Source of the DNA: Candidatus Moranbacteria bacterium RIFCSPHIGHO2_02_FULL_40_12b
GTDB lineage: Bacteria; Patescibacteriota; Minisyncoccia; Moranbacterales; 2-12-FULL-40-10
Assembly: GCA_001784725.1 (NCBI GenBank)
Contig: MFRX01000034.1
Coordinates: forward strand, 657-44,570
DNA: 43,914 bases
Direction of reading: 5' to 3'
Shown: in pieces, positions 981 to 43,412 of the stretch
Layout: every line of letters starts with the position of its first letter
How positions within the stretch are numbered: position 1 is the stretch's first letter
Notes under the pieces: generated by a model
Seen by the model: the letters and a program-made list of their open reading frames with translations, nothing else
Told to the model about the DNA's origin: nothing
Databases searched by the model: none
Translations under genes and position numbers: made by a program

Positions 981-1994
981 ATGGAAACAAAAAATAAAAC
1001 ACATTCCAGCGAACTTCGCCAGGATTTGATTACCGGCGACTGGGTGGTGATCGCCACCGGACGCGCCAAAAGACCGGAGGATTTCGTTAAAAACAGCCGC
1101 ATCATTTCGGAAAACAATGTCTCCGAATGTTTATTCTGCGATCCGGAAAAATCAGGCCAGGAAAAAGATATTCTGATATACAAGGACAAAAACGGCGACT
1201 GGACGCTGCGGGTTTTTCCCAACAAATATCCGGCTTTTATCGGCGGCAAGCCGCAATCCCTGGAAGAAGGGCCATATTTCGCGATGACTGGGGCGGGATT
1301 TCACGAAGTAATCGTGACTAGAGATCATCATAAACAGGCAGCGTTAATGGAGACCATGGAAATCGTGGAGGTTTTTGACGCCTATCAGGAAAGATATCTT
1401 GATTTGATGAATAAAAAGGATGTCAATTATATCAGCATTTTTCACAATCACGGAAAAGAGGCCGGGGCGTCAATCGCCCATCCCCATTCGCAGCTTATGG
1501 CGATTCCGGTTATTTCTCCTTACGTTGAACTGGAACTGGACGGTTCGGAAAAATATCACCGGCAAAACAGGCACTGCGTTTTCTGCGTGATCGCGGAATA
1601 TGAAAGCAAAGTTAAGAAAAGAGTCGTTTTTGAAAACGAAAAATTTATCGCCTATTGCCCTTTTGCCTCGCGCGCCGCGTTTGAGGTCTGGGTAGTCCCC
1701 AAAAAACATTCGCCTTATTTTGAAAGAACCGCCAGTGAGGGAAAAATTTCCCTCGCGGAGGTTTTCGGAAAAGCGTTGCATTCCATTTATAAAGCGCTCG
1801 GCGATCCGGCGTATAATTTCTACATCCACACTTCGCCCTGCGACGGAAAGGACTATCCCCATTTCCATTGGCACCTTGAAATACTTCCTCACACGGCTGT
1901 TTGGGCGGGGTTTGAACTCCAGACGGGCATAGAGATTTCCACCATACCGCCGGAAGCGGCGGCGGAATTTTTGCGTAGCCGACAGAATCTTTAA
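981..1994 (+). CDS. galT: Galactose-1-phosphate uridylyltransferase-type HIT-superfamily nucleotidyltransferase
   Basis: CxxC (CLFCDPE), FPNKYPA, and the active-site motif HPHSQL. The duplicated half-domain has FHWHLEI. Confidence 0.8.
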   Translation: METKNKTHSSELRQDLITGDWVVIATGRAKRPEDFVKNSRIISENNVSECLFCDPEKSGQEKDILIYKDKNGDWTLRVFPNKYPAFIGGKPQSLEEGPYFAMTGAGFHEVIVTRDHHKQAALMETMEIVEVFDAYQERYLDLMNKKDVNYISIFHNHGKEAGASIAHPHSQLMAIPVISPYVELELDGSEKYHRQNRHCVFCVIAEYESKVKKRVVFENEKFIAYCPFASRAAFEVWVVPKKHSPYFERTASEGKISLAEVFGKALHSIYKALGDPAYNFYIHTSPCDGKDYPHFHWHLEILPHTAVWAGFELQTGIEISTIPPEAAAEFLRSRQNL

Positions 1995-9145: not shown

Positions 9146-10408
9146 ATGCAAATTCGTATCAACCATATCGCGAAAATGGAAGGGCACGCCGGGTTTATGG
9201 CAAGCGTTCTTCAGGGCGATGTGAAATCGGCCAAGTTAGAAATCCAGGAGGGTATCCGGCTTATTGAAGGAGTGCTAATCGGACGCCATTATAAAGATAT
9301 GCCAGTAATTGCGCAGAGAATCTGCGGAATCTGCCCCGTAGTGCATAATCTGACATCTATCAAAGCGATTGAAAACGCTTTCAGTATTAAGGTTTCCAAT
9401 GAAACGGTAAATTTGCGAAAACTTTTAGAATGGGGACAAATCATCCACTCTCACGCTTTGCATCTATTTTTTCTGTCGCTGGCTGATTTTTTGGATATTG
9501 AAAATGACTTAATATTAACGAAAGAGTATCCGGAAGAAACCAAAAAAGCCATTAAAATCCGCGAGTTTGGAATGTCTATCGTTAAAATTATCGGTGGGCG
9601 GGTAATTCATCCTTTAACAAATGAAGCAGGCGGTTTTAAAAAAATTCCCAAACAAGAGGAATTGCAGGAGCTGATTATTCAAGGCGAGGAAATTCTGCCG
9701 GTGGCGCTGGAAGTGGGAGAATTTTTCAAAAAAATAAAAATTCCAACATTTTCAAGGATGTCAGAGTATGTCTGTTTGGATAAATCCGCCGAATACGCGA
9801 TTTATGACGGCGATATTTCTTCCAATAAAGGGCTTCATATACCGGTGGAAAAATTCGAGAATAATTTCAAAGAACTTCAGCGCCCGCGGGAAATAGTCAA
9901 GAGAGTTATGGCTGACGGGAAAACCAGCTATATGGTGGGCGCCATCGCGAGAGTCAATAACCAGAGCAAAAAACTGAATTACAACGCGGAAAAATATCTG
10001 GAGTCGCTGGGATTTGCGCTTCCGGACTATAATCCGTTCCATAACATCCTTTATCAGATGACGGAGGTTATCCACTGCGTCGAGGAATCACTCAAAATGC
10101 TTCGGATTTTAGCACGCGGCAATTTAGAAAACGCCTTGACTAAAAATTACGAAATCAAAGAGGGTTCGGGAGTGGCAGCGGTGGAAGCGCCAAGGGGAAC
10201 TTTATATTACCATGTTGATATTGACGGCAAGGGTTATGTTAAAAACGTGAATATTATCACTCCCACGGCGCAGTTTTTGTCGCATCTGGAAGACGATGTC
10301 GCGGCCTATATCCCAAGCATTTTAGACCTATCCGACAAAGAAAAAGAAAAAAAACTGCGGGCTTTCATCCGGGCGTATGACCCGTGCATCAGCTGCGCGG
10401 TACATTGA
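9146..10408 (+). CDS. [NiFe]-hydrogenase large (catalytic) subunit, group-3-type
   Basis: The N-terminal Ni-binding motif is RICGICPVVH. The C-terminal motif DPCISCAVH is the very end of the ORF. Confidence 0.9.
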   Translation: MQIRINHIAKMEGHAGFMASVLQGDVKSAKLEIQEGIRLIEGVLIGRHYKDMPVIAQRICGICPVVHNLTSIKAIENAFSIKVSNETVNLRKLLEWGQIIHSHALHLFFLSLADFLDIENDLILTKEYPEETKKAIKIREFGMSIVKIIGGRVIHPLTNEAGGFKKIPKQEELQELIIQGEEILPVALEVGEFFKKIKIPTFSRMSEYVCLDKSAEYAIYDGDISSNKGLHIPVEKFENNFKELQRPREIVKRVMADGKTSYMVGAIARVNNQSKKLNYNAEKYLESLGFALPDYNPFHNILYQMTEVIHCVEESLKMLRILARGNLENALTKNYEIKEGSGVAAVEAPRGTLYYHVDIDGKGYVKNVNIITPTAQFLSHLEDDVAAYIPSILDLSDKEKEKKLRAFIRAYDPCISCAVH

Positions 10409-11874: not shown

Positions 11875-12177
11875 TCACTTGCTGGGCGAGAGTTTCTTAT
11901 CCAGTCCTCGTTTCCAACCGCCCAGCATCCGTCCGATTTCTTCCAGTTTTTGCGAAAGATTTATGTATTTTTCATTCGGAACAAGTTTGTTTTCCCATGC
12001 CAGTTGCAGAAAAAATTTCAAAACATCCAGTCGGGATATGGCTTTCCCCAGCAAAATTATTTTATGCTCCGGAGGAAGATAGGAAGCGGTAAAACTTAAT
12101 TCTAAAATTTCTAAAAATAAATTATCAATTCTTCTCCCGATTCCATAGCGCTCGGTTTTGGGGAAATCACGATGCAA
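11875..12177 (-). CDS. avd: Avd-like accessory variability determinant (four-helix-bundle / 23S rRNA IVS protein family); N-terminus uncertain
   Basis: FPKTERYGIG and the C-terminal EEIGRMLGGWKRGL resemble Avd/four-helix-bundle proteins. The TTG start gives 100 aa. The frame stays open 27 more codons upstream without a canonical start. Confidence 0.75.
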   Translation of the reverse strand: MHRDFPKTERYGIGRRIDNLFLEILELSFTASYLPPEHKIILLGKAISRLDVLKFFLQLAWENKLVPNEKYINLSQKLEEIGRMLGGWKRGLDKKLSPSK

Positions 12178-12309
12178 AATCAGCCAGTATTGATACGCTT
12201 CTTTTTCTTTTATGATTACGGCCGGCGAGGTCTTGGGGGGGGGGTCATAATAGTCATAAGTTTAAAATTTCCGCCAAAGGCGGATCCGCCAGTGGCGGAA
12301 AAAATCAAA

Positions 12310-13320
12310 ATGCAAAATAAAAAGGCAAAATTTGGAAAAAAATACGATGAAATTATTTCTTTGGATAATCTTTTGGAAGCCTGGAAAGAATTTTTGCAAG
12401 GGAAGCGGAACAAGAAAGATGTCCAAATTTTCCAAATGCGCTTAATGGACAATATTTTTGCGCTTCACGATGACCTCAATAATTTAACATATAAGCACGG
12501 CGGATATCAAGCGTTCAAAATCAATGACCCCAAGCCAAGAGATATCCATAAGGCCGCAGTGAGGGATCGGCTTTTGCATCACGCCATTTACAGAATCCTT
12601 TATCCTTTTTTTGAAAAAACATTCATTGCTGATTCATATTCTTGCCAACTCAATAAAGGGACGCATAGAGCGATTAATAGATTTAGAAAATTCTCATACA
12701 AGGTCAGTCAAAACAATATAAAAACCTGCTGGATATTGAAATGCGACATCAGGAAATTTTTCGCCAATATCAACCATGAAATTTTGCTTGGAATTTTAGC
12801 TCAATATGTTCCGGACAAAAATATATCACGGTTCCTTGAAGAAGTAGTCGGCAGTTTCAACACTAAAGGAAAGGATGATGTTGGATTACCGCTCGGAAAT
12901 TTAACCAGCCAGCTTTTCGTGAATATTTATATGAATAAATTTGATCAGTTTGTGAAACACGGATTAAAGGCGAAATATTACATTCGCTACGCCGATGATT
13001 TTGTGATTTTTTCGGGAGATAAAGAATGGCTGGAAGATAGAATCGAAACCATGCGAAATTTTTTGCGAAACGAATTAAAACTGGAACTCCATCCGGATAA
13101 AGTTTTCATAAAAACATTGGTTTCAGGATTGGACTTTTCGGGCTGGGTGAATTTTTGTGATCACAGAGTTTTGCGGACGGCGACCAAGAGAAGGATGATG
13201 AAAAGAATATCGGAGAATCCAAGTCCGGAGACATTGAATTCATATTTGGGGATGCTGGGGCATGGGAACGCGGAAAAGTTGAGAGAGGATATTTTTAATA
13301 ATTTTGTTTATAAGTTATAA
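12310..13320 (+). CDS. DGR-type reverse transcriptase
   Basis: LGNLTSQLFVNIY ((I/L/V)GxxxSQ, the DGR RT signature), YADD catalytic box (IRYADDFVIF), size about 336 aa. The start is set to ATG 12310. The listed 12172 start adds a low-complexity extension through the G10 tract. Confidence 0.9.
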   Translation: MQNKKAKFGKKYDEIISLDNLLEAWKEFLQGKRNKKDVQIFQMRLMDNIFALHDDLNNLTYKHGGYQAFKINDPKPRDIHKAAVRDRLLHHAIYRILYPFFEKTFIADSYSCQLNKGTHRAINRFRKFSYKVSQNNIKTCWILKCDIRKFFANINHEILLGILAQYVPDKNISRFLEEVVGSFNTKGKDDVGLPLGNLTSQLFVNIYMNKFDQFVKHGLKAKYYIRYADDFVIFSGDKEWLEDRIETMRNFLRNELKLELHPDKVFIKTLVSGLDFSGWVNFCDHRVLRTATKRRMMKRISENPSPETLNSYLGMLGHGNAEKLREDIFNNFVYKL

Positions 13321-13327
13321 TAATGGC

Positions 13328-13603
13328 GTGCACGACTTCTTATTAGCTAAACAAATAGTAGGTGATGTCCTGAAAGTTTCCAATAAAAAGGGATTAAAAA
13401 ACATCAAGTCCGTTTCCTTGGAAATCGGCAGTGTTTCGCTTACTCATGATAGTTTTAATGAGCACGCGGAAGATATAAATCTGGAAAATTTAAAATTCGG
13501 GATTGAAAGCATTGCGAAAAATACGGTTTTAAAGGACACTAAATTTAATATAAAGAAAACAGAAGGGGACAGTTGGAAAATAACGGGAATTGAGGTAGAA
13601 TAG
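13328..13603 (+). CDS. hypA: HypA-like hydrogenase nickel-insertion protein lacking the zinc-finger domain
   Basis: GTG start gives N-terminal MHD (compare the MHE Ni-binding motif). A..IV, VSLEIGSVS and C-terminal ITGIEVE match the HypA layout, but the protein has no cysteine. Confidence 0.6.
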   Translation: MHDFLLAKQIVGDVLKVSNKKGLKNIKSVSLEIGSVSLTHDSFNEHAEDINLENLKFGIESIAKNTVLKDTKFNIKKTEGDSWKITGIEVE

Positions 13604-20106: not shown

Positions 20107-20179
20107 GGGCCGGTAGCTCACCTGGTAGAGCGCCTCATTTGCACTGAGGAGGTAGCGGGTTCAAGTCCTGTCCGGTCCA
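20107..20179 (+). tRNA. tRNA-Ala(UGC)
   Basis: Manual cloverleaf fold with the G3:U70 identity pair and anticodon loop TTTGCAC. 73 nt, no encoded CCA. Confidence 0.9.
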
Positions 20180-20182
20180 CAT

Positions 20183-20256
20183 GGGCGTATAGCTCAGTTG
20201 GTTAGAGCGCGTCACTGATAATGACGAGGTCCCAAGTTCGAATCTTGGTACGCCCA
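20183..20256 (+). tRNA. tRNA-Ile(GAU)
   Basis: Manual cloverleaf fold with anticodon loop CTGATAA and T-loop TTCGAAT. 74 nt. Confidence 0.9.
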
Positions 20257-20338
20257 CAATTTGACAAGAATAAAGTTATTCAATAAAGTGAAGTCAATAT
20301 AGTACTTTGCATTTTAAAAATAAAAAAGGAGGTATTAA

Positions 20339-23120: not shown

Positions 23121-23363
23121 CTGTTAGCTTATTAGCTTTTTAGATTCGTATCCCATTGTTTTTTAAAGGTTTTCATAAAAGGCGCTTTCAGGCGTCTTTT
23201 TTTTATGTTTTATAACCATTAGTCATTTTCCGCACATGCGGTAAATGACTAATATTTGTCAGGCAGTATTGGTGAGTGTGTAGCCGCGAGAGTTTGACAG
23301 TTATATAAATTTGTTGGTAGGATTTAGCTAGTTCTTAAAATAAAAGGGATAAGGGGGGATGAA

Positions 23364-23855
23364 ATGAGAGATATAGAAATTAAGATAATAAAGAAATTAA
23401 AAGGTCTGCGGCATGTTTGTAATAAAATAAGGCAAACAAGAACGATTATTCTTACTACTGGCGCTTACGACATAATGCATAAGGGACATATTCTTTATTT
23501 AAACAACGCTAAGGAATTAGGAGATATTCTCATAGTGGGAATTAATGACGATTGTTTTACAAGAAAGATAAAAGGTCCCGGGAGGCCGTATAATAATCAA
23601 GAATCACGCGCCTTAGTTGTTGCCTCAATTGTCTTTGTTGATTTTGTTTACATATTCGGCATAAGTGAAGATGTAGAGTTAATCCATGCTGTCAGACCGC
23701 ACATTTTTGTAATGTCCAGTTCTTCCCATAGAAAACCAGAGTCAAGACAACATCAGATTAATGCAGTAATAAAACACGGAGGAAAAATAAAAGTTTTTAA
23801 GCCGTTTTACAGGGTTCATTCCTCGGATATAATTAAAAAAATGAAAAAGAGTTGA
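23364..23855 (+). CDS. Cytidylyltransferase-like nucleotidyltransferase (RfaE-II/TagD-like)
   Basis: TTGAYDIMHKGH (the HxGH motif) followed by VGINDD. Confidence 0.7.
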   Translation: MRDIEIKIIKKLKGLRHVCNKIRQTRTIILTTGAYDIMHKGHILYLNNAKELGDILIVGINDDCFTRKIKGPGRPYNNQESRALVVASIVFVDFVYIFGISEDVELIHAVRPHIFVMSSSSHRKPESRQHQINAVIKHGGKIKVFKPFYRVHSSDIIKKMKKS

Positions 23856-23915: not shown

Positions 23916-24377
23916 ATGAACATACTTTATCCAAAACGCGCTGAATATAGGAAAAAAATAACCAAAATAACTAAGTGTGAATTTTGCAACAGAAAAAATA
24001 TCAATCAACAAGAATGTAAAACATTGTCGGGAAAATCTTGGATGGTTTTAGTAAATAAGTATCCTTATATGGACGGAAATTTAATGATTGTCCCAAAACG
24101 CCATTTAAGAGATATAGAAGAATTAAATAAAGACGAAAGAAATGAGTTTTATCAAGTTTTTAAAAGCGCGAAAGTAAAACTTTCTAAAATTTTCAAAACA
24201 GAAGATTTTAATCTTGGTATAAATTTTGGCAAAAAAGCCGGATCATCAATTGAGCATATGCATTGGCAAATAATTCCGAGAAAGGAGAAAATTTTAAATT
24301 CCTCCAATATCTTTGCGGATTTATATGTCATAACAATATCTCCTGAAAAATTAAGGAAATTAATTGACAAAAAATAA
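23916..24377 (+). CDS. HIT-family nucleotide hydrolase/transferase
   Basis: N-terminal CEFC and a histidine-triad variant HMHWQIIP. Confidence 0.75.
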   Translation: MNILYPKRAEYRKKITKITKCEFCNRKNINQQECKTLSGKSWMVLVNKYPYMDGNLMIVPKRHLRDIEELNKDERNEFYQVFKSAKVKLSKIFKTEDFNLGINFGKKAGSSIEHMHWQIIPRKEKILNSSNIFADLYVITISPEKLRKLIDKK

Positions 24378-24378
24378 T

Positions 24379-25632
24379 ATGTCTTATTTTTTAAACCTAA
24401 AAAAACAGGATCCGCGGGTTTATAAATCCGTGCTGGGAGAAATAAAAAGGCAGCAGGAAGGGCTGGAAATGATCGCATCGGAAAATTATGTATCCGCTGC
24501 GGTGCTTGAAGCGCTGGGAACGGTGTTTACCAATAAATATTCCGAGGGCTATCCGGGAAAAAGATATTATGGCGGGCAGGAGTTCACCGATGTCATTGAA
24601 GAACTGGCAATCAAGCGCGCCAAAAAATTATTCGGGGCGGAGCATATTAATGTCCAGCCGCTTTCAGGAGCGCCGGCCAATATGATCGCTTACAGCGCGG
24701 TTTTAAAACCAGGAGATAAAATATTGGGAATGGATTTGTCGCATGGCGGACATCTTACCCACGGACATCCCGTTACTCTTTCGGCGAAAATTTATAATTT
24801 TATCAGATATAAAACCACTCCTGACGGGAAAATTAATTATAAAGAACTGGAAAAAATAGCAATCAAGGAAAAGCCAAAAATGATTTTAGCCGGATTCTCG
24901 GCGTATACGCGGCAATTGGATTACAAAAAATTTTCCGCTATCGCTAAAAAAGTCAGGGCAATTTCTATGATTGATATCGCCCATATTGCCGGACTCATTG
25001 CCGGCAAAGCGATTCCTAATCCAGTTCCGTATTTTGACATAGTAACTACAACGACGCATAAAACACTCCGCGGTCCCCGGGGTGGAATGATTATGTGCAA
25101 AAAGGGATTTGCCAAGGCCATTGATAAAGCGGCTTTCCCTGGATTTCAGGGCGGGCCGCATATGAACAATATTGCTGCATTGTCCGTGGCGCTTGGCGAA
25201 GCGCTGGAGCCGTCTTTTAAAAAATACGCGAAACAGATTATAAAAAACGCGAAAATTTTAGAACAAGAATTAAGAAAATATGGATTTAAAATTATGTTTG
25301 GCGGAACAGACAATCATATGGTGCTACTGAATGTATTCAGCAGCAAAGGCGTAACCGGCAAAGAAGCGGAAGTGGTACTGGATAAAATCGGCATAACCAT
25401 CAATAAGAACATGATTCCGGACGATCCGCGGCATCCGATGGACCCGAGCGGAATCCGCATCGGCGTTCCGGCGGCGACTACCCGCGGAATGAAAGAAAAA
25501 GAGATAAAATTGATTGCCCAATATATAAACGATGCGATTAGTAATCATAAAAACAATAAAACATTAAAACAAGTTAACAAGGAAGTGAAAAAACTCTGCA
25601 AAAAATTTCCGATATACAAAAATTTAAAGTAA
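24379..25632 (+). CDS. glyA: Serine hydroxymethyltransferase
   Basis: LEMIASENY, TNKYSEGYPGKRYYGG, TTTTHKTLRGPRGG (PLP lysine). ATG 24379 lies 1 nt after the HIT gene stop. Confidence 0.95.
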   Translation: MSYFLNLKKQDPRVYKSVLGEIKRQQEGLEMIASENYVSAAVLEALGTVFTNKYSEGYPGKRYYGGQEFTDVIEELAIKRAKKLFGAEHINVQPLSGAPANMIAYSAVLKPGDKILGMDLSHGGHLTHGHPVTLSAKIYNFIRYKTTPDGKINYKELEKIAIKEKPKMILAGFSAYTRQLDYKKFSAIAKKVRAISMIDIAHIAGLIAGKAIPNPVPYFDIVTTTTHKTLRGPRGGMIMCKKGFAKAIDKAAFPGFQGGPHMNNIAALSVALGEALEPSFKKYAKQIIKNAKILEQELRKYGFKIMFGGTDNHMVLLNVFSSKGVTGKEAEVVLDKIGITINKNMIPDDPRHPMDPSGIRIGVPAATTRGMKEKEIKLIAQYINDAISNHKNNKTLKQVNKEVKKLCKKFPIYKNLK

Positions 25633-25696
25633 ATGGTTCTGCGCTTAACACCGATCGACGCTTTGATAATTTGTAGAGCAAATGCATAAGAATTAT

Positions 25697-26251
25697 ATGA
25701 ATAGAAAAATTATAGCGATTCTGGGACTTCCCGGGTCGGGAAAAACGGAAGTTATAAATTATTTGATTAAAAAATTCAACTGGCCAAAAGTTTATTTCGG
25801 CGATGTTACTTTTGATGAATTAAAAAATCGCGGATTAGAAATTAACGAAAAAAATGAGCGGATGGTCAGAGAAGATTTAAGAAATAAATATGGCCGCCTC
25901 TACTACGCGAATAAAGTGGTTGAAAAAATAGAGAATATAAGTGATGCCGAAATTATTTTAGTAGAAAGTTTGTATGATTGGAGCGAATATCTTTTGTTTA
26001 AAGAAAAATTTAGCGATGATTTTTTAACAATAGCTGTTTATGCTTCTCCAAGAGTCAGATACGAAAGATTGGGAATAAGAAAGATAAGACCGCTTACACC
26101 CGAGGAAGCTCAGAGCCGAGACTATGCTCAAATAGAAAATATTTTTCAAGCGGGACCGATTGCAATGGCAGATTATACAGTGGACAATAATGACACGTTT
26201 GAAACTTTGTTTAAGCAAATCGACAATATTATAAGTAAAATTAATGCATAG
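25697..26251 (+). CDS. P-loop nucleoside/nucleotide monophosphate kinase-like protein
   Basis: Walker A GLPGSGKTE, about 185 aa. An alternative start is ATG 25682. Substrate cannot be assigned by eye. Confidence 0.6.
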   Translation: MNRKIIAILGLPGSGKTEVINYLIKKFNWPKVYFGDVTFDELKNRGLEINEKNERMVREDLRNKYGRLYYANKVVEKIENISDAEIILVESLYDWSEYLLFKEKFSDDFLTIAVYASPRVRYERLGIRKIRPLTPEEAQSRDYAQIENIFQAGPIAMADYTVDNNDTFETLFKQIDNIISKINA

Positions 26252-27086
26252 TTTTATGCATCAGTTCGACATCCAATACAAAGAAGCGCTCCGGAAAATA
26301 ATGAACGAGGGGAGCGAAGAATATAACGAGCGGACGGGGCACAGGACGCTGGCGCTTCCGGGCGTCACTTTTGAAATTGACGAGACCTTCCCGCTTCTCA
26401 CGCTCCGGAAAATTCCGGTGCGCATTTTTGTCGCCGAGCAGATCTGGTTCATTATGGGAAGCGATAATCCGGATGATTTCGTGGCCAGGTACACCAAGAT
26501 TTGGGATGACTTCCGCGAAGCCGACGGAAAAATCGCGGCGGCTTACGGGCATCGGATGCGGAAACATTTCGGCCGGGACCAGCTGAAAAATTTAATCGAC
26601 CATTTGGGACGGGAAAGGGGATCTCGCCACGGCGTAATCGTTTTTTGGGATCCGGGAGACGACGGGCTGGGAACCGGAACAAAGAAAAAAAATGTCCCTT
26701 GCCCATATACCTTTACGGCTAACGTAATTGACAATAAATTGCATTTGCATTTAATAATCCGTTCCAATGACATGATGCTGGGGTGCCCGCATGACATGGC
26801 GGGATTCGCGGTTATGCAGGCGATATTGGCAGCCAAAGTCGGAGCCGCAGTGGGAAAAATGACTTATTCAGTTAGTAACGCCCACATTTATGACATTCAT
26901 TATGACTACGCCAGAGAAATAATTGAAAGGGGAAACAACCACGGTCCGATATTTTTTGAAGCGCAGGAAAATTACTTTGACCGGGCGGAAAAAGGCGACG
27001 ACAAATTGTTTGAAGAAATAGTGGAAAAAATAAACAGCCAGTATAATCCGCTTCCACCGATAAAAGGGATGGAAATAGTTTTATGA
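26244..27086 (+). CDS. Thymidylate-synthase-family (ThyA fold) pyrimidine C5-modifying enzyme with Asp at the Asn177 specificity position
   Basis: Manual alignment to E. coli ThyA matches ERTG (R21), EQIWF, AYGHRMR, GSRH, VPCP (C146), IIRSND (R166/S167/D169), LGCPHD (N177 replaced by D), SNAHIY (H207/Y209). The Cys-to-Asp spacing is 31 residues, as in E. coli C146-N177. Confidence 0.8.
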   Translation: MHSFMHQFDIQYKEALRKIMNEGSEEYNERTGHRTLALPGVTFEIDETFPLLTLRKIPVRIFVAEQIWFIMGSDNPDDFVARYTKIWDDFREADGKIAAAYGHRMRKHFGRDQLKNLIDHLGRERGSRHGVIVFWDPGDDGLGTGTKKKNVPCPYTFTANVIDNKLHLHLIIRSNDMMLGCPHDMAGFAVMQAILAAKVGAAVGKMTYSVSNAHIYDIHYDYAREIIERGNNHGPIFFEAQENYFDRAEKGDDKLFEEIVEKINSQYNPLPPIKGMEIVL

Positions 27087-27592
27087 AAATTATAATGATA
27101 ATGGCCGCTACGGCCGACGGAAAAATCGCCAAAAACTCCGGACATTTTCCCGACTGGACTTCCAGGGAGGATAAGAAGTTTTTCGCGCGCGAATCCAAAA
27201 AAGCGGGCGTGGTGATAATGGGTGGGAAAACATTCGACACTTTTCCGGCGCCGCTTAAAGGCCGGCTGAACGCAATTGTGACGATTGATAAGGGTTACAA
27301 AGATATCCCGGGTAAAGTGAAGGTCTACTATAAAAAATCCCCTAAGTATATACTGAAGGACTTGAAAAAAATGGGCTACAAAAAAGCGATATTGGGCGGA
27401 GGAGCGTTTATCAACGGATTATTTTTAAAAAATAAATTGGTTGATGAAATGATAATTATTATCGCCCCGAAATTTTTTGGAAGAGGGCTCTGCTTGACTG
27501 AAGGGTTTGATTTTGATTATAATTTAAAAATAATTGAGACATATAAAATAAATAAGGACTCGGTTTTGCTTCATTATAAAATTTTATACTAA
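27083..27592 (+). CDS. Dihydrofolate-reductase-like protein (RibD C-terminal domain family)
   Basis: MAATADGKIA...DW.S.EDKKFF...VIMGGKTFD. It overlaps the ThyA-family gene by 4 nt (ATGA). Confidence 0.65.
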   Translation: MKIIMIMAATADGKIAKNSGHFPDWTSREDKKFFARESKKAGVVIMGGKTFDTFPAPLKGRLNAIVTIDKGYKDIPGKVKVYYKKSPKYILKDLKKMGYKKAILGGGAFINGLFLKNKLVDEMIIIIAPKFFGRGLCLTEGFDFDYNLKIIETYKINKDSVLLHYKILY

Positions 27593-27593
27593 G

Positions 27594-28253
27594 ATGGCAA
27601 CTTTAACCAAAAAAGAAATTATAAATTTGATAAAAGAGAAGAAAATTGAGTTTGATCCGGAACTTGACCAGTTTCAGGTCCAGCCCAATTCTGTCGATAT
27701 CCGGGTCGGCTGGAATTTTTATATTCCCAAAACCTGGGAATATAACGAAAAAGGGAGAGTGGCACTTAACATAAATTATCTGGACCAGGGCATCAAGAAA
27801 GACAGCTACAAAATAATCCGGCTGGTGGAAGGACAGTATTTTGAAATACTTCCCGGAGAATTCGTGATAATATCAACTCTGGAAAAAATAAAGCTTAATG
27901 AAGGAAAACTGATGGCGGTTCTTTACGCGAGAAGTTCAACGATAAGAAGGGGGCTGGTCGTGGAGAGCGGAACGATTGACGCCCGCTATGAAGGATATCT
28001 TATGCTTCCGGTAATGAACAACACCAAAGACCAGATAATCAAGATTTATCCCGGAGAAAGGATATGCCAGCTTGTTTTTCATGAATTGTCCTCCGGACTT
28101 ACAAAAGAAGAAGCGGACATTCACGGAGTGGCAAAAGCCAAATATCTTTCATCCACCTCCTACGGGCTGGAAGCGCGGAGCGACAGCGAAGAGGAAATTA
28201 ATTTAATCAAAAAAGGAAAAATAAAGGACTTAAAAAATAAATATAAAATTTAG
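27594..28253 (+). CDS. dCTP deaminase/dUTPase-superfamily protein lacking the Dcd catalytic Glu (dUTPase/dCTPase-like)
   Basis: QPNSVDIRVG, ARSSTIRRG, GTIDARYEGYLMLPVMN. Pro occupies the position of E. coli Dcd E138, 10 residues after the ID Asp. The Tyr 3 residues after the ID Asp matches dUTPases. Confidence 0.75.
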   Translation: MATLTKKEIINLIKEKKIEFDPELDQFQVQPNSVDIRVGWNFYIPKTWEYNEKGRVALNINYLDQGIKKDSYKIIRLVEGQYFEILPGEFVIISTLEKIKLNEGKLMAVLYARSSTIRRGLVVESGTIDARYEGYLMLPVMNNTKDQIIKIYPGERICQLVFHELSSGLTKEEADIHGVAKAKYLSSTSYGLEARSDSEEEINLIKKGKIKDLKNKYKI

Positions 28254-28268
28254 GGAGGGCAGTTCTTT

Positions 28269-28796
28269 ATGAATGAAATAAAATATCCATATATTCCTGA
28301 AGGACGCAATATGTTATACGTTCCGGCAAATAATCCTTTTATGATTGAAGCAATTCTCGTTAGAAATACTGAGAGTACTGACAAGAATCATTCGACCGGC
28401 GCGGTTGTGGTCAAAGGGGGAGTGATTATTGGCAGAGCGGCTAATCATGCCGGATTTAAACATCCAAAGTTTATCGCGCTTCACGCCAGGGGCTGGTGTA
28501 TCCGCAGAAAACTTAAAGTAAAATCAGGAACGAAATATTGGCTTTGTCCGGGATGTTCAACTCATGTTGATCATGCGGAAAGCGGCGCTGTTCGTGATGC
28601 TATAAGTAAAGCAGGAACTGAAGCGGTTATTGGCGCGGATTTGTATCTTTATGGACATTGGTGGTGCTGTAAGCCGTGCTGGGACGCTATGATTGAGGCA
28701 GGAATAAGGGATGTCTATCTTCTGGAAAAATCCTGGGAGCTTTTTAATTCAGAGCTTAATCACGAAATAAAGAAGCGGGGAAAGCCGAAAAATTGA
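28269..28796 (+). CDS. Deoxycytidylate (dCMP) deaminase family zinc enzyme
   Basis: HAE (VDHAESGAV) and PCxxC (CKPCWDAM) zinc motifs. The C-terminal GIRDVY is ComEB-like. Confidence 0.8.
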   Translation: MNEIKYPYIPEGRNMLYVPANNPFMIEAILVRNTESTDKNHSTGAVVVKGGVIIGRAANHAGFKHPKFIALHARGWCIRRKLKVKSGTKYWLCPGCSTHVDHAESGAVRDAISKAGTEAVIGADLYLYGHWWCCKPCWDAMIEAGIRDVYLLEKSWELFNSELNHEIKKRGKPKN

Positions 28797-28823
28797 AAGT
28801 AATGTTTGTATTTTGAATGACAT

Positions 28824-28884
28824 AAAATCTATTCTCAAATTCTCCCTCCAAAGGCGGGCAAGTAAGAATTTGAGAATAGATTTT
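28824..28884. repeat. 19-bp perfect inverted repeat with 23-nt loop
   Basis: aaaatctattctcaaattc (28824-28842) pairs with gaatttgagaatagatttt (28866-28884). The loop contains a ccctcc-aaa-ggcggg mini-hairpin. Confidence 0.85.
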
Positions 28885-28906
28885 AAACGATAAGGGAAGG
28901 AAAATT

Positions 28907-29584
28907 ATGGAAAGAGGAAAATTTATTGTAATAGACGGAACAGATGGAAGCGGCAAGGCGACGCAAGCTAAACTGCTAATAAAGAGATTAAAAAAAGAGG
29001 GCTATAGAGTTAAATTGGCTGATTTTCCCCAATATGGAAAAAAATCAGCGGGACTGGTTGAGGAATATCTTAATGGAAAATATGGCGAATCAAAAGAAGT
29101 TGGTCCATATCGTGCTTCTGTTTTTTACGCCTGCGATCGCTATGACGCTAGTTTTGAGATACGGGAAGCTCTAAATGAAGGAAAAATTGTTATTTCCAAC
29201 CGTTACGCAGCATCCAATATGGCGCATCAGGGAGGGAAAATAAAAAATTCCCGTGAGAGAAAAAAATTTCTGAAATGGCTGGATGATTTAGAATTTGGGA
29301 TATTTGCTATTCCCCGCCCAAATCTCAATATCATACTTCATGTGGACGCAGCTGTGGCGCAAAAACTGGTTGATAGTAAAGGATATCGGGATTATGTTGG
29401 AGGAAAAAAGAGAGACATTCACGAAGCGGATATCAAACATCTATGCGATGCTGAAAAAATATATATTGAAATAGCGAAAAATTTTCCTGGATTTTCACTG
29501 ATTGAATGCACTCGAGGCAGGAAAATTATGAGTCGGGAAGAAATAAGCAAGATGGTTTGGAAAAAAGTTAAGAAAATAGTTTAG
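28907..29584 (+). CDS. tmk: Thymidylate kinase
   Basis: FIVIDGTDGSGKATQ P-loop, DRY motif (CDRYDAS), and the lid region. Confidence 0.9.
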   Translation: MERGKFIVIDGTDGSGKATQAKLLIKRLKKEGYRVKLADFPQYGKKSAGLVEEYLNGKYGESKEVGPYRASVFYACDRYDASFEIREALNEGKIVISNRYAASNMAHQGGKIKNSRERKKFLKWLDDLEFGIFAIPRPNLNIILHVDAAVAQKLVDSKGYRDYVGGKKRDIHEADIKHLCDAEKIYIEIAKNFPGFSLIECTRGRKIMSREEISKMVWKKVKKIV

Positions 29585-29657
29585 TTTTTAGCCGAGTTTC
29601 ATTTCAATTTCAACTCGGCTTTATTTTTTGTTTTTTTCGTGATAAAATGGAGAAAAT

Positions 29658-29987
29658 ATGAACTTTGAAGAATACCAGAAAAAATCAAGAAAAACCGCTA
29701 AATATCCCGAGGCGGATAATAATTTTGTCTATCCTACTTTGGGATTAGCCGGCGAATCCGGAGAAGTGGCGGAGAAAATAAAAAAAGTCATTCGGGACAA
29801 AGGCGGAAAAATTGACGATGAAACTAGAGAATTGATTAAGAAAGAATTAGGAGATGTTTTGTGGTATGTGGCGCAGCTGGCAACGGAACTGGGCTTGTCG
29901 CTGGATGATGTCGCCAGCCATAACATTGAAAAACTTTACAGCCGGCTGGAGAGGGATAAATTAAATGGTAGCGGAGACAATAGGTAA
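29658..29987 (+). CDS. MazG-like (all-alpha) nucleoside triphosphate pyrophosphohydrolase
   Basis: LAGESGEVAEKIKK (ExxE) and ELGDVLWYV motifs. About 109 aa. Confidence 0.8.
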   Translation: MNFEEYQKKSRKTAKYPEADNNFVYPTLGLAGESGEVAEKIKKVIRDKGGKIDDETRELIKKELGDVLWYVAQLATELGLSLDDVASHNIEKLYSRLERDKLNGSGDNR

Positions 29988-42326: not shown

Positions 42327-43412
42327 TTGGGAATGAAAGATTTAAAGCAAAATATTTGGTTTGACGCGAAACTCGGAGTCATTTTGTTGGTATTATTATA
42401 TTTATTGGCGTTTTGCGCCAAAGCGAAAGCCGACGAATTATCCGAGGCCTTCGCGACGGTGGAGGTGCTGTCCGCCGATTGCGCCTCAATGGGCAACGCC
42501 TGCGTTTCAGCGCGGGAATTCTCCAGCGACTTAAATCCGGCGTTAGTGGCAGTTACCACCAGTAAGGATTTTAAGTGGGGAATCAGTCCCGCTTACGCGT
42601 CCGTAAATTTCAAAAACGGGCCGGATATTCAGGGCGGTTCCTTGAGTTTTTCGGTAGCGCTTCCGAAAGGAGTGCTGCAACTGTCATACACCGGAGCCGG
42701 ATCAAATCGGCATACGGATTTTATTGAAGCCGATGGGATATTAATTTCCAGTTCACTGGACTTTGATTCCCTGCAGAACTTTGGAGTCCAGTATGGGATA
42801 GATATTGTTAAAAATCTGATCAAAAAAGGCGACAAACTCTATATAGGAGCCGGGTATACTTATTCCAAGTCCAAAATATTGTCGGATCTGGCGATTATAA
42901 TTCCAATGGAGGAAAGCGATCCGCTGGCAATGGATTTTTATTTGAATTCCAAATCGCGGTCGCATACCTACACGGCTGGAGCTGTTTATGTTCCAATGGA
43001 GAAAATATCACTGGGTATTGCGTATTCCTATACGCGAACCAAAACGACCAATGACACCGACATCCCGGTGGAAATCGATTCCACACCAGATGAGGAAAAA
43101 AATCGGATGAACGATTTGCGGATCGGCGCCAGCTGGAAAATTACGGATAAACTGATGCTGGCCGGCGATTACCGCCACGCGAATGTGAACAGCAATAATT
43201 TTGACCAGTATTACACCGGCGCGGAGTATTGCTTCCACGAAGCACTCTGCGTCTATGGCGGAATTCCCAATTCCGGCTGGTCGGCGGGAGCGGGATTATA
43301 TCTGGAACACGGAGGCATCAATGTTGCCTACCAGTATGACCCCTATAAGCAGGTTCGCGACGATTTCGGCAAAGCCAGGGTAGTCGCGGTGACAGGATAT
43401 TTATCTTTCTAA
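42327..43412 (+). CDS. Secreted beta-barrel-like protein (FadL/PorV-like features)
   Basis: SD aaggagga. The signal peptide ends AKA|DE. A SMGNACVS...DLNPA N-terminal motif is present. The alternating beta-strand pattern, many Y/G/S/T residues and the C-terminal ...VTGYLSF (terminal Phe) fit a barrel. Confidence 0.6.
   Translation: MGMKDLKQNIWFDAKLGVILLVLLYLLAFCAKAKADELSEAFATVEVLSADCASMGNACVSAREFSSDLNPALVAVTTSKDFKWGISPAYASVNFKNGPDIQGGSLSFSVALPKGVLQLSYTGAGSNRHTDFIEADGILISSSLDFDSLQNFGVQYGIDIVKNLIKKGDKLYIGAGYTYSKSKILSDLAIIIPMEESDPLAMDFYLNSKSRSHTYTAGAVYVPMEKISLGIAYSYTRTKTTNDTDIPVEIDSTPDEEKNRMNDLRIGASWKITDKLMLAGDYRHANVNSNNFDQYYTGAEYCFHEALCVYGGIPNSGWSAGAGLYLEHGGINVAYQYDPYKQVRDDFGKARVVAVTGYLSF

Follow-up and report, generated by a model that had tools for sequence, protein, structure and literature searches.

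We propose, with moderate confidence, that a cluster of eight genes in Candidatus Moranbacteria bacterium RIFCSPHIGHO2_02_FULL_40_12b encodes a dUMP-free route to thymidylate, dCTP → dCMP → 5-methyl-dCMP → dTMP → dTDP, which serves as housekeeping metabolism in Patescibacteria. The cluster lies in a 43,914-nucleotide stretch of contig MFRX01000034.1 (positions 657 to 44,570), which we refer to as the window, and consists of eight co-directional open-reading frames (ORFs) on the + strand (24379–29987), whose positions and profile matches agree with the eight co-linear genes and domains named in an original prediction for this DNA. In the proposed scheme, a Dcd-like pyrophosphatase without the deaminase glutamate would convert dCTP to dCMP, and may clear dUTP too; a ThyA homologue with Asp177 would methylate dCMP with methylene-tetrahydrofolate (methylene-THF, from GlyA), giving 5-methyl-dCMP and dihydrofolate; a dihydrofolate reductase (DHFR)-like protein encoded next door would regenerate THF; a divergent deaminase would convert 5-methyl-dCMP to dTMP, and Tmk would phosphorylate dTMP to dTDP. 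The order of methylation and deamination would be swapped with respect to the canonical pathway, which is the logic of phage Xp12. A dCMP → 5-methyl-dCMP → dTMP bypass was one of two readings offered in the original prediction, and it is the explanation best supported by residues, tree and linkage. We infer the substrates and products, the step order and the possibility that the organism has no other thymidylate source from the observed active-site substitutions, the loss of the deaminase glutamate, the protein folds, the tree placement and the gene linkage.

Active site and relatives of the ThyA homologue

The ThyA homologue has the fold, profile and catalytic residues of a thymidylate synthase (TS). 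In HMMER alignments with E. coli TS and other solved thymidylate synthases, 'VPCPY…IRSNDMMLGCPHDMAGF' pairs with 'APCHA…QRSCDVFLGLPFNIASY', and RSNDMMLGCPHDMAGF is aligned onto RSCDVFLGLPFNIASY of the E. coli enzyme, which places an aspartate at the Asn177 position; the nucleophile Cys146 is retained and His147 is replaced by proline. Aligning the window protein with homologues from 80 species-level genomes (n = 81) shows Asp177 in 81/81 sequences and Pro147 in 80/81, and Cys146, Glu58, Trp80, Tyr94, Arg126, Arg166, Ser167, Asp169, His207 and Tyr209 are invariant (81/81), such that the Asp variant first noted in this single protein is found family-wide. The family lacks the Asn177 and His147 of dUMP-specific TS; this Asn forms hydrogen bonds to O4/N3 of uracil and determines dUMP specificity, and the His neighbours the catalytic Cys. 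It exhibits the features of Xp12-type dCMP methyltransferases, namely Asp177, a residue other than His at 147, and Ser167/Arg126. Positions 177 and 147 are the best separators of cytosine-modifying from ordinary TS homologues in metaviromes (PMC8670742). In the CMP-specific enzyme MilA, Ala and Lys (Ala176, Lys133') replace Ser167/Arg126', giving a preference for ribose (PMC5175136); these two deoxyribose determinants are kept throughout our family, and a CMP-specific, MilA/BcmA-like identity was rejected. The C-terminus ('PIKGMxIVL') is like the lid of true TS. Taken together, Asp177/Pro147, Ser167/Arg126, the kept catalytic residues and the TS-like C-terminus lead us to predict a dCMP-directed enzyme of the methyl-transfer type, which we refer to as ThyA(Asp).

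An ordinary dTTP operon, in which a dUMP-dependent TS copes with Asp177, dUMP comes from dCMP through the deaminase and the Dcd-like protein serves as the dUTPase, we consider unlikely. A deaminase, a dUTPase-like protein, TS, DHFR, Tmk and GlyA are the exact canonical set, all annotation pipelines name the ThyA homologue thymidylate synthase, its methyl-transfer residues are complete, it passes the TIGR03284 cutoff, if barely (110.6 vs. 108.35 bits), and a Dcd-like protein that lacks Glu and has motif III of the dUTPase type might simply be Dut. However, selection for dUMP should keep Asn and His, whereas Asp177 and Pro147 hold across deeply divergent classes at the frequencies given above; Asn-to-Asp mutagenesis (N177D/N229D) converts TS to a dCMP methylase, switching its specificity to dCMP (cited in PMC8670742), and the protein groups with verified dCMP methylases, not with Asn-type TS. 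The original prediction had itself raised the case of a normal dUMP-specific TS, and every sequence criterion that we applied points the other way.

Close homologues of the window ThyA are all from Patescibacteria (candidate phyla radiation, CPR). Among 1.84 billion representative proteins, Asp-type sequences account for 127 of the 150 best representative clusters and the first Asn-type sequence appears at about rank 83, which also argues against an ordinary operon. The best phage matches are the TS homologues of Xanthomonas phage Mallos, Rhodobacter phage RcRudolph, Pseudomonas phage ZQG1, Ruegeria phage Tedan and Achromobacter phage 83-24, sharing 32–38% identity with the window protein; the corresponding values are 28% with E. 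coli ThyA and 23% with T4 gp42. A scan of IMG/VR with the window ThyA returned no relative. Asp177/Pro147 and the indels 'HFGRDQL' and 'DGLGxxxxKNVPCP' are common to the phage and CPR proteins. The Mallos TS shares 64% identity with its counterparts in Xp12 and PaMx74, and Mallos and Xp12 are placed in one subfamily, the Bradleyvirinae. In a distance-based neighbour-joining tree, Asp-type sequences (with gp42 outside) were split from Asn-type sequences in 84/100 bootstrap replicates; the Asp-type clade takes in the Xp12-like phage dCMP methyltransferases and leaves out the canonical thymidylate synthases, and gp42 has Asp at its specificity position (Asp179) yet falls outside. The Xp12 TS homologue and five metagenomic relatives make 5-methyl-dCMP in vivo (bioRxiv 10.1101/2024.12.05.627091). 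Fusions also occur among the Asp-type TS representatives: deaminase–TS(Asp) (P0257), PRA-PH (MazG-like)–TS(Asp) (P0283) and HNH endonuclease–TS (P0258).

The conserved core and its partner enzymes

We sampled gene neighbourhoods with family profiles within ±10 kb of thyA at 80 species-level loci, 58 of which, the well-flanked subset, extend 3 kb or more to either side of thyA; the classes in the sample include Moranii-, Portnoy-, Falkow-, Harrison-, Jackson-, Kuenen-, Magasanik-, Doudna-, Uhr-, Pace- and Nomurabacteria. Within the well-flanked subset, the DHFR-like gene lies within 1 kb of thyA in 52/58 loci and within 3 kb in 56/58. For the deaminase gene, the count is 52/58 at a distance of up to 3 kb and 56/58 at up to 10 kb, and the Dcd-like gene is within 10 kb in 40/58 (~69%). 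Over all loci, tmk is found within 10 kb of thyA in 48/80 and the P-loop kinase in 22/80 (beside thyA or right after the deaminase), whilst glyA is linked to the cluster in 12/80 and MazG in 8/80. The conserved unit is made up of ThyA(Asp), the DHFR-like protein and the deaminase, often joined by the Dcd-like protein; the eight-gene string is lineage-specific, as the kinase, tmk, glyA and MazG vary between lineages. The eight-gene module described in the original prediction is therefore present in the window, but is conserved only as a three-to-four-gene core; likewise, a check of gene order across relatives found that the core recurs in 80 species-level genomes, whilst the eight-gene order varies between lineages. 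Such recurrence across Patescibacteria is not a chance arrangement. Depending on the class, the deaminase gene is downstream and co-directional, or divergent and directly beside thyA, and the existence of both orientations suggests that proximity itself is selected and that this is not an operon frozen in place. In many classes, rplK/rplA and gatB lie at the flanks of the cluster.

Some of the sampled CPR-type clusters belong to metagenome-assembled genomes labelled Chloroflexota, Ktedonobacterales, Saprospiraceae and 'uncultured Gammaproteobacteria' (loci L067, L049, L042, L007/L011/L013/L014/L018 and others; L067 is on a 366-kb contig). Such labels reflect either mis-binning or mislabelling of Patescibacteria contigs, or true transfer beyond the phylum.

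In both sequence and structure, the Dcd-like protein comes closest to the bifunctional M. jannaschii and M. tuberculosis Dcd:dut enzymes and to monofunctional Dcd. It has the DCD fold and exceeds the curated dCTP-deaminase cutoff (TIGR02274, 104.7 vs. 92.8 bits), and public records label it 'dCTP deaminase'. Unlike in these enzymes, however, the catalytic Glu is replaced by Pro across the window family: Glu129 of M. tuberculosis Dcd:dut ('ITLEL') and its counterpart in 4xjc align to Pro139 ('LMLPV') in HMMER, and this column holds Pro in 48/50 locus homologues and 118/121 database homologues (the remaining three have Ser) and Glu in none, such that the glutamate used for deamination by Dcd enzymes (E138 in E. 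coli, E129 in M. tuberculosis) is lost from the family. The nucleotide-site Arg, Ser, Ser, Arg, Asp and Tyr are conserved, and the dUTPase motif III (G-x-I-D-x-x-Y-x-G) is present as 'GTIDARYEG', with the catalytic Asp (D129, 47/50 locus and 115/121 database homologues), the deoxyribose-gating Tyr (Y132, 46/50 and 115/121) and a near-invariant Gly (G134, 49/50 and 121/121). With its catalytic Glu replaced by Pro, the protein would be incapable of deamination, whilst the pyrophosphatase half-reaction alone can remain. It is best read as a predicted deoxypyrimidine triphosphate pyrophosphatase, and the Glu-to-Pro replacement bears out the Dcd/Dut-like pyrophosphatase of the original prediction. 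Its activity would be dCTP → dCMP, with dUTP hydrolysis equally possible and both compatible with one another. Feedback inhibition by dTTP is known for the DCD scaffold, and would suit a pool-balancing entry step.

A similar association was found outside the sampled loci. The fusion P0257 is a 433-amino-acid deaminase–TS(Asp) protein (L093:8001-9302) on a phage-like contig (ribonucleotide reductase, VanY, many ORFans), and it adjoins a Pro-type DCD-like gene (L093:9335-9973, − strand) whose product shares 39% identity with the window protein. This suggests that a Pro-type DCD-like protein is a recurrent partner of TS(Asp) and deaminase, in the place of the PRA-PH/MazG of Xp12-like phages.

Public annotation of these families seems systematically misleading, with Asp177 proteins named 'thymidylate synthase' and Glu-less DCD-fold proteins 'dCTP deaminase' (P0001-P0120, P0395-P0514), and the deaminase appears in records as 'deaminase', 'deoxycytidylate deaminase' or 'TadA'.

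The deaminase carries the zinc-binding and catalytic motif of dCMP deaminases (H102-A-E104 and C134-x-x-C137, invariant), and four more invariant residues, H72/C77/C93/C96, lie within a family-specific insertion, where we suspect a second metal site by analogy with two-zinc dCMP deaminases. As the sequence had no match in the PDB (phmmer), we used its predicted structure (AlphaFold, pLDDT 90.9); the top Foldseek matches were the dCMP deaminases of T4, human, cyanophage S-TIM5 and PBCV-1 (1vq2, 2w4l, 4p9e, 7fh4), ranked ahead of RibD, guanine deaminase and TadA, with modest TM-scores of 0.44–0.59. The protein is not a member of the ComEB equivalog (TIGR02571, 18.5 bits vs. a cutoff of 219). Homologues are limited to Patescibacteria. 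BLASTP against phage-module deaminases gave nothing significant, tblastn against 50,697 phage genomes gave no match, and hhalign against the phage-module deaminases, as stand-ins for mSCD-B5, gave 93.9% probability over the catalytic core only. We predict a 5-methyl-dCMP deaminase yielding dTMP. Animal dCMP deaminases accept 5-methyl-dCMP, and the proposed deamination chemistry would thus be unexceptional. Deaminases of phage TS modules prefer 5-methylated cytosine nucleotides and accept 5-hydroxymethyl-deoxycytidine nucleotides, and have been proposed to supply deoxythymidine from 5-methyl-deoxycytidine nucleotides in phages with fully 5-methylcytosine (5mC) DNA (10.1101/2024.12.05.627091). 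A location in cis with a TS(Asp177) gene, the criterion given for mSCD enzymes in the same study, is seen here within 3 kb at the frequency given above.

In a number of loci, an additional NDT/DNPH1-like domain (motif PSLGVGxELEIA; a weak PF05014 match, E = 4.6e-6, just below the cutoff) is fused to the C-terminus of the deaminase (16 loci: L003, L007, L010, L022, L031, L033, L038, L043, L045, L048, L052, L053, L058, L065, L076, L079) or encoded by a separate ORF beside it (12 loci: L024, L029, L030, L041, L042, L044, L060, L062, L064, L070, L071, L075); no NDT-like gene was found in the window. This domain could be a dNMP N-glycosidase disposing of dUMP, or a salvage enzyme. The Jacksonbacteria deaminase ORF of L012 (362 amino acids) carries a fused HAD_2 phosphatase domain (PF13419, E = 1e-22), and the deaminases of L046, L009, L013 and others have an unassigned C-terminal tail of ~80 amino acids.

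The DHFR-like protein exceeds the DHFR profile cutoff (PF00186, 44.6 vs. 25 bits), scores higher against RibD_C (PF01872) and matches the DHFR family phrog_316; sequence alone does not separate DHFR from pyrimidine reductase. It is predicted to recycle dihydrofolate, and GlyA to supply 5,10-methylene-THF. CPR folA genes, which may or may not belong to the family of the DHFR-like gene here, complement E. coli ΔfolA, which has been read as a service to hosts (PMC11974145), and adjacency to ThyA(Asp) would give a simpler, cell-autonomous reason for CPR folA.

The linkage data bear on the net product. Near-universal coupling of methylase and deaminase, up to fusion, suggests that the two act consecutively with dTMP as the net product, and the linkage of tmk together with the patchiness of the kinase and MazG points the same way. 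The TS-like C-terminus and the closeness of the DHFR-like gene argue for reductive methylation yielding dihydrofolate, not hydroxymethylation. It is very unlikely that the enzyme is instead a dCMP hydroxymethylase like T4 gp42, whose 5-hydroxymethyl-dCMP would then be deaminated or cleaved, for example by the NDT/DNPH1-like domain. gp42 likewise has Asp at its specificity position, NDT-like domains accompany the deaminase in 28/80 loci, and the pairing of TS-like and NDT-like proteins recalls MilA and its partner MilB. On the other hand, the divergence of gp42 from the window protein, its place outside the Asp clade and the TS-like C-terminus speak against hydroxymethylation, and a hydroxymethylase releases THF and so needs no DHFR, yet the DHFR-like gene is nearly always adjacent. 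The phage deaminases do take 5-hydroxymethyl-deoxycytidine nucleotides too, but the nearest characterised relatives of ThyA(Asp) make 5-methyl-dCMP (10.1101/2024.12.05.627091).

The P-loop kinase has its best PDB match in Sulfolobus SSO1041 (3lw7, E = 3e-11), an archaeal UPF0200/AdkA-like protein, matches phrog_139 'dNMP kinase' (E = 3e-13) and shares 26% identity (E = 1e-9) with a kinase beside the TS of Bacillus phage BSP15; homology to T4 gp1 was not detected, the BLASTP match (E = 0.19) being non-significant. MazG is a strong match to the phage MazG family phrog_229 (E = 6.5e-40), BLASTP against gp56 and phage-module pyrophosphatases gave nothing significant, and its PDB matches are weak and to YpjD-like proteins only, offering no tie to the DCTPP1-like preference for 5-modified dCTP suggested in the original prediction. 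In a thymidylate route, the kinase and MazG could act in dNMP phosphorylation and pool sanitation.

The same two genes would be central if the product were a pool of 5-methyl-dCTP, with 5-methyl-dCMP phosphorylated by the P-loop kinase and nucleoside diphosphate kinase, dCTP removed by the Dcd-like protein and/or MazG, a share of the methylated pool diverted to thymidine nucleotides by the deaminase, and genomic cytosine largely or wholly 5mC, as in Xp12. We regard such a pool as improbable. More doubtful still is the claim that cluster-bearing Patescibacteria, at least the lineages with a thyA-coupled kinase, this one among them, replicate with 5-methyl-dCTP and have chromosomal cytosine largely or completely as 5mC. 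Xp12 provides the precedent, as homologous TS(Asp), nucleoside triphosphate (NTP) pyrophosphatase and deaminase there make both 5mC-DNA and deoxythymidine; in the window, the phrog_139-type kinase gene abuts thyA and there are two candidate NTP pyrophosphatases, and full 5mC substitution would be invisible in short-read assemblies. Furthermore, E. coli required T4 gp1 to get 5-methyl-dCMP into DNA (10.1101/2024.12.05.627091), which implies that a dedicated kinase would matter. Across the loci, however, the kinase and MazG are rare next to the near-universal deaminase and DHFR-like genes, a deaminase so tightly coupled to the methylase, and once fused to it, would destroy the 5-methyl-dCMP needed for DNA, the tmk linkage fits dTMP as the product, and no report of 5mC-rich Patescibacteria DNA was found, within an incomplete coverage of the literature.

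A number of points weigh against the dUMP-free route itself. At two loci with full flanks, L018 and L067, the 10 kb around thyA contain no deaminase, and as the sampled loci cover ±10 kb, ThyX or an Asn-type ThyA may exist elsewhere in the genomes. The Asp enzyme might keep useful dUMP activity, and the deaminase is, in sequence, only superfamily-level similar to the phage 5mC-selective deaminases, of which the best studied, mSCD-B5, uses triphosphates and not 5-methyl-dCMP (10.1101/2024.12.05.627091). The NDT/DNPH1-like domain stands outside the proposed scheme, and the abutting of thyA by a phage-type dNMP-kinase-like gene in the window, with MazG following tmk, fits 5-methyl-dCTP synthesis too.

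Chromosomal setting and other features of the window

Coordinates and profile matches of the cluster genes and other features are collected in Table 1. The junctions agree with those originally described: a 1-nt gap between the HIT gene and glyA, an ATGA overlap between thyA and the DHFR-like gene, 1 nt between the DHFR-like and Dcd-like genes and 15 nt between the Dcd-like and deaminase genes; the remaining gaps in the cluster are 110 nt and 73 nt. From a thyA start at 26256 (276 amino acids), favoured by public gene calls and homologues, a 4-nt gap follows the kinase, and an alternative start at 26244 (280 amino acids) gives an 8-nt overlap. An identical 276-amino-acid ThyA protein is present in Rifle-aquifer assemblies, including NCBI GCA_001786615.1.

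Table 1 Coordinates of the cluster genes and of other features in the window.
Feature	Position	Strand	Match
Second HIT-superfamily gene (GalT-like/DUF4921, Ap4A-phosphorylase-like)	981-1994	+	
NiFe-hydrogenase large-subunit gene	9146-10408		
Reverse-transcriptase ORF	12172-13320	+	RVT_1 E 3e-23
HypA-like gene	13304-13603		
tRNA-Ala(TGC) and tRNA-Ile(GAT)	20107-20257	+	
Cytidylyltransferase-like gene	23364-23855	+	PF01467
HIT-family gene	23916-24377	+	PF01230
glyA, serine hydroxymethyltransferase	24379-25632	+	PF00464 513 bits, NF000586 577 bits
P-loop NMP/dNMP-kinase-like protein (UPF0200/AdkA-like)	25682-26251	+	AAA_18 E 2e-11
ThyA-family protein, Asp177/Pro147 type, predicted dCMP 5-methyltransferase	26256-27086	+	PF00303 170 bits
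DHFR-like reductase (RibD_C/DHFR_1)	27083-27592	+	PF01872 70.9 bits, PF00186 44.6 bits
DCD/dUTPase-superfamily protein without deaminase Glu	27594-28253	+	PF22769 98.9 bits, TIGR02274 104.7 bits
Divergent zinc deaminase, dCMP-deaminase fold (dCMP_cyt_deam_1)	28269-28796	+	PF00383 E 1.2e-11
tmk, dTMP kinase	28907-29584	+	PF02223 76.4 bits, NF005923 118 bits
Small MazG-like NTP pyrophosphohydrolase	29658-29987	+	PF03819 48.8 bits
ORF with porin-like matches	42327-43412	+	Porin_4 E 2e-6, OMP_b-brl E 1.5e-5

The cluster is flanked upstream by glycolysis genes, a NiFe hydrogenase, murD, trxB and secE-nusG-rplK-rplA, and downstream by gatB, pyrB, miaA, miaB, rpsB and tsf, and GC content is even across the window with no island signal, all in accordance with the chromosomal context first suggested. 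Given the housekeeping flanks, the flat GC content and a like neighbourhood in many classes, an origin as a prophage or island was rejected. Directly upstream, an RfaE-domain-II-like cytidylyl/adenylyltransferase gene and a HIT gene are possibly co-transcribed with the cluster, and their order is kept in strain-level contigs (L089, L090). Each of the two encodes an enzyme that handles nucleotides; the best NCBIfam match of this HIT protein is 'ATP adenylyltransferase', far below the cutoff of that family. A terminator-like site (23177-23200) and a promoter-like site (23294-23323) precede the pair, but such sites are no more frequent in the window than in shuffled sequence. An Rfam scan of the window found no riboswitch or other RNA besides seven tRNAs.

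Elsewhere in the window, the reverse-transcriptase ORF, probably of the group II intron or retron type, is placed between the NiFe-hydrogenase large-subunit gene and the HypA-like gene. The tRNA-Ala and tRNA-Ile genes are 2 nt apart with no adjoining rRNA gene; the normal site of this pair is the bacterial rRNA spacer. A further HIT-superfamily gene, 22 kb upstream of the cluster, brings the HIT-type nucleotide transferases in the window to two. Sub-threshold matches to porins and outer-membrane-protein beta-barrels were seen in an ORF near the end of the window, which is unexpected, as Patescibacteria are usually held to be without an outer membrane.

Implications and comparison with known systems

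To our knowledge, the textbook cellular routes to thymidylate are ThyA and ThyX only, both from dUMP. If the proposed route is correct, dTMP is made from dCMP via 5-methyl-dCMP in a very large radiation of bacteria that never needs dUMP, and metabolic reconstructions of Patescibacteria, with their 'thymidylate synthase' and 'dCTP deaminase' labels, would change. It would explain why DHFR and GlyA are kept in CPR genomes without folate synthesis and, for tiny genomes that have few repair genes, would point to a strategy of keeping uracil low. It would also link cellular metabolism in evolution with the cytosine-modifying toolkits of phages, supply sequencing technology with many and varied candidate 5mC-acting deaminases and dCMP methylases, and raise the question of wholesale 5mC in any cellular DNA; were replication with 5-methyl-dCTP to be true, this would be the first cellular organism with pool-level base replacement, so far known from phages only. 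Our search of the literature on dCMP methylation, thyX and 5-methylcytosine in Patescibacteria/CPR found nothing relevant, and no paper was found on this route in cells, on the Asp177 signature or on a Glu-less Dcd in Patescibacteria. The original prediction held that either of its readings would be new; the type of enzyme and the methylate-then-deaminate logic are in fact documented for Xp12-like phages, whilst cellular use across a phylum appears new.

The original prediction took the T-even cytosine-modification toolkit as its model. The functional categories of T4 (gp42, gp1, gp56, cd, frd and td) do match the cluster one for one, gp42 likewise has Asp at its specificity position, and the deaminase has its top structural match in T4 cd. 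However, gp42 makes a hydroxymethyl rather than a methyl product and is distant in both identity and tree, gp56 has no detectable similarity to the Dcd-like protein in BLASTP, and the T4 genes are scattered, with a separate td kept for dTMP. The closest analogue is instead the Xp12-type 5-methylcytosine module. The nucleoside-antibiotic pathways with MilA/BcmA CMP hydroxymethylases and MilB-type N-glycosidases also employ a TS homologue with Asp at the cytosine-specifying position, and share with related loci the NDT-superfamily domain, but our family differs in its deoxy-type Ser/Arg in place of Ala/Lys, and in its housekeeping context rather than a biosynthetic gene cluster.

Canonical dTMP synthesis (Dcd and Dut, or ComEB, then ThyA with Asn177 and FolA, followed by Tmk) uses the same folds, the same cofactor cycle (GlyA, DHFR) and the same number of steps from dCMP to dTMP, and arrives at the same end product. 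The cluster differs in having Asp for Asn and a Dcd-like protein predicted to be unable to deaminate, and its predicted order of reactions is reversed, with no dUMP intermediate.

In Xp12-like phages (Bradleyvirinae, Steinhofvirus, RDJL-like), the module consists of an NTP pyrophosphatase (PRA-PH/MazG), TS, deaminase and DHFR. For example, in Mallos, RcRudolph, ZQG1, Tedan and 83-24, TS(Asp) and the deaminase are directly followed by a gene in the DHFR position, to which annotation gives the name DHFR in Mallos, RcRudolph and ZQG1 and the label hypothetical in Tedan and 83-24. Of the five, RcRudolph, ZQG1 and 83-24 have an annotated nucleotide pyrophosphohydrolase by or near TS, and Mallos and Tedan do not. 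The phage modules and the cluster have in common the Asp177/Pro147 TS with its indels and bootstrap-supported clade, the adjoining TS, deaminase and DHFR genes, and an NTP pyrophosphatase as fourth partner. Unlike the phage modules, the cluster is chromosomal, with ribosomal-protein and gatB flanks, and is inherited across many classes of a bacterial phylum; its pyrophosphatase is a Glu-less DCD-fold protein rather than PRA-PH, and its deaminase is superfamily-level kin with an extra Cys-rich insertion. The linkage to tmk suggests action at the monophosphate level, and the likely purpose is the supply of dTMP, not DNA hypermodification.

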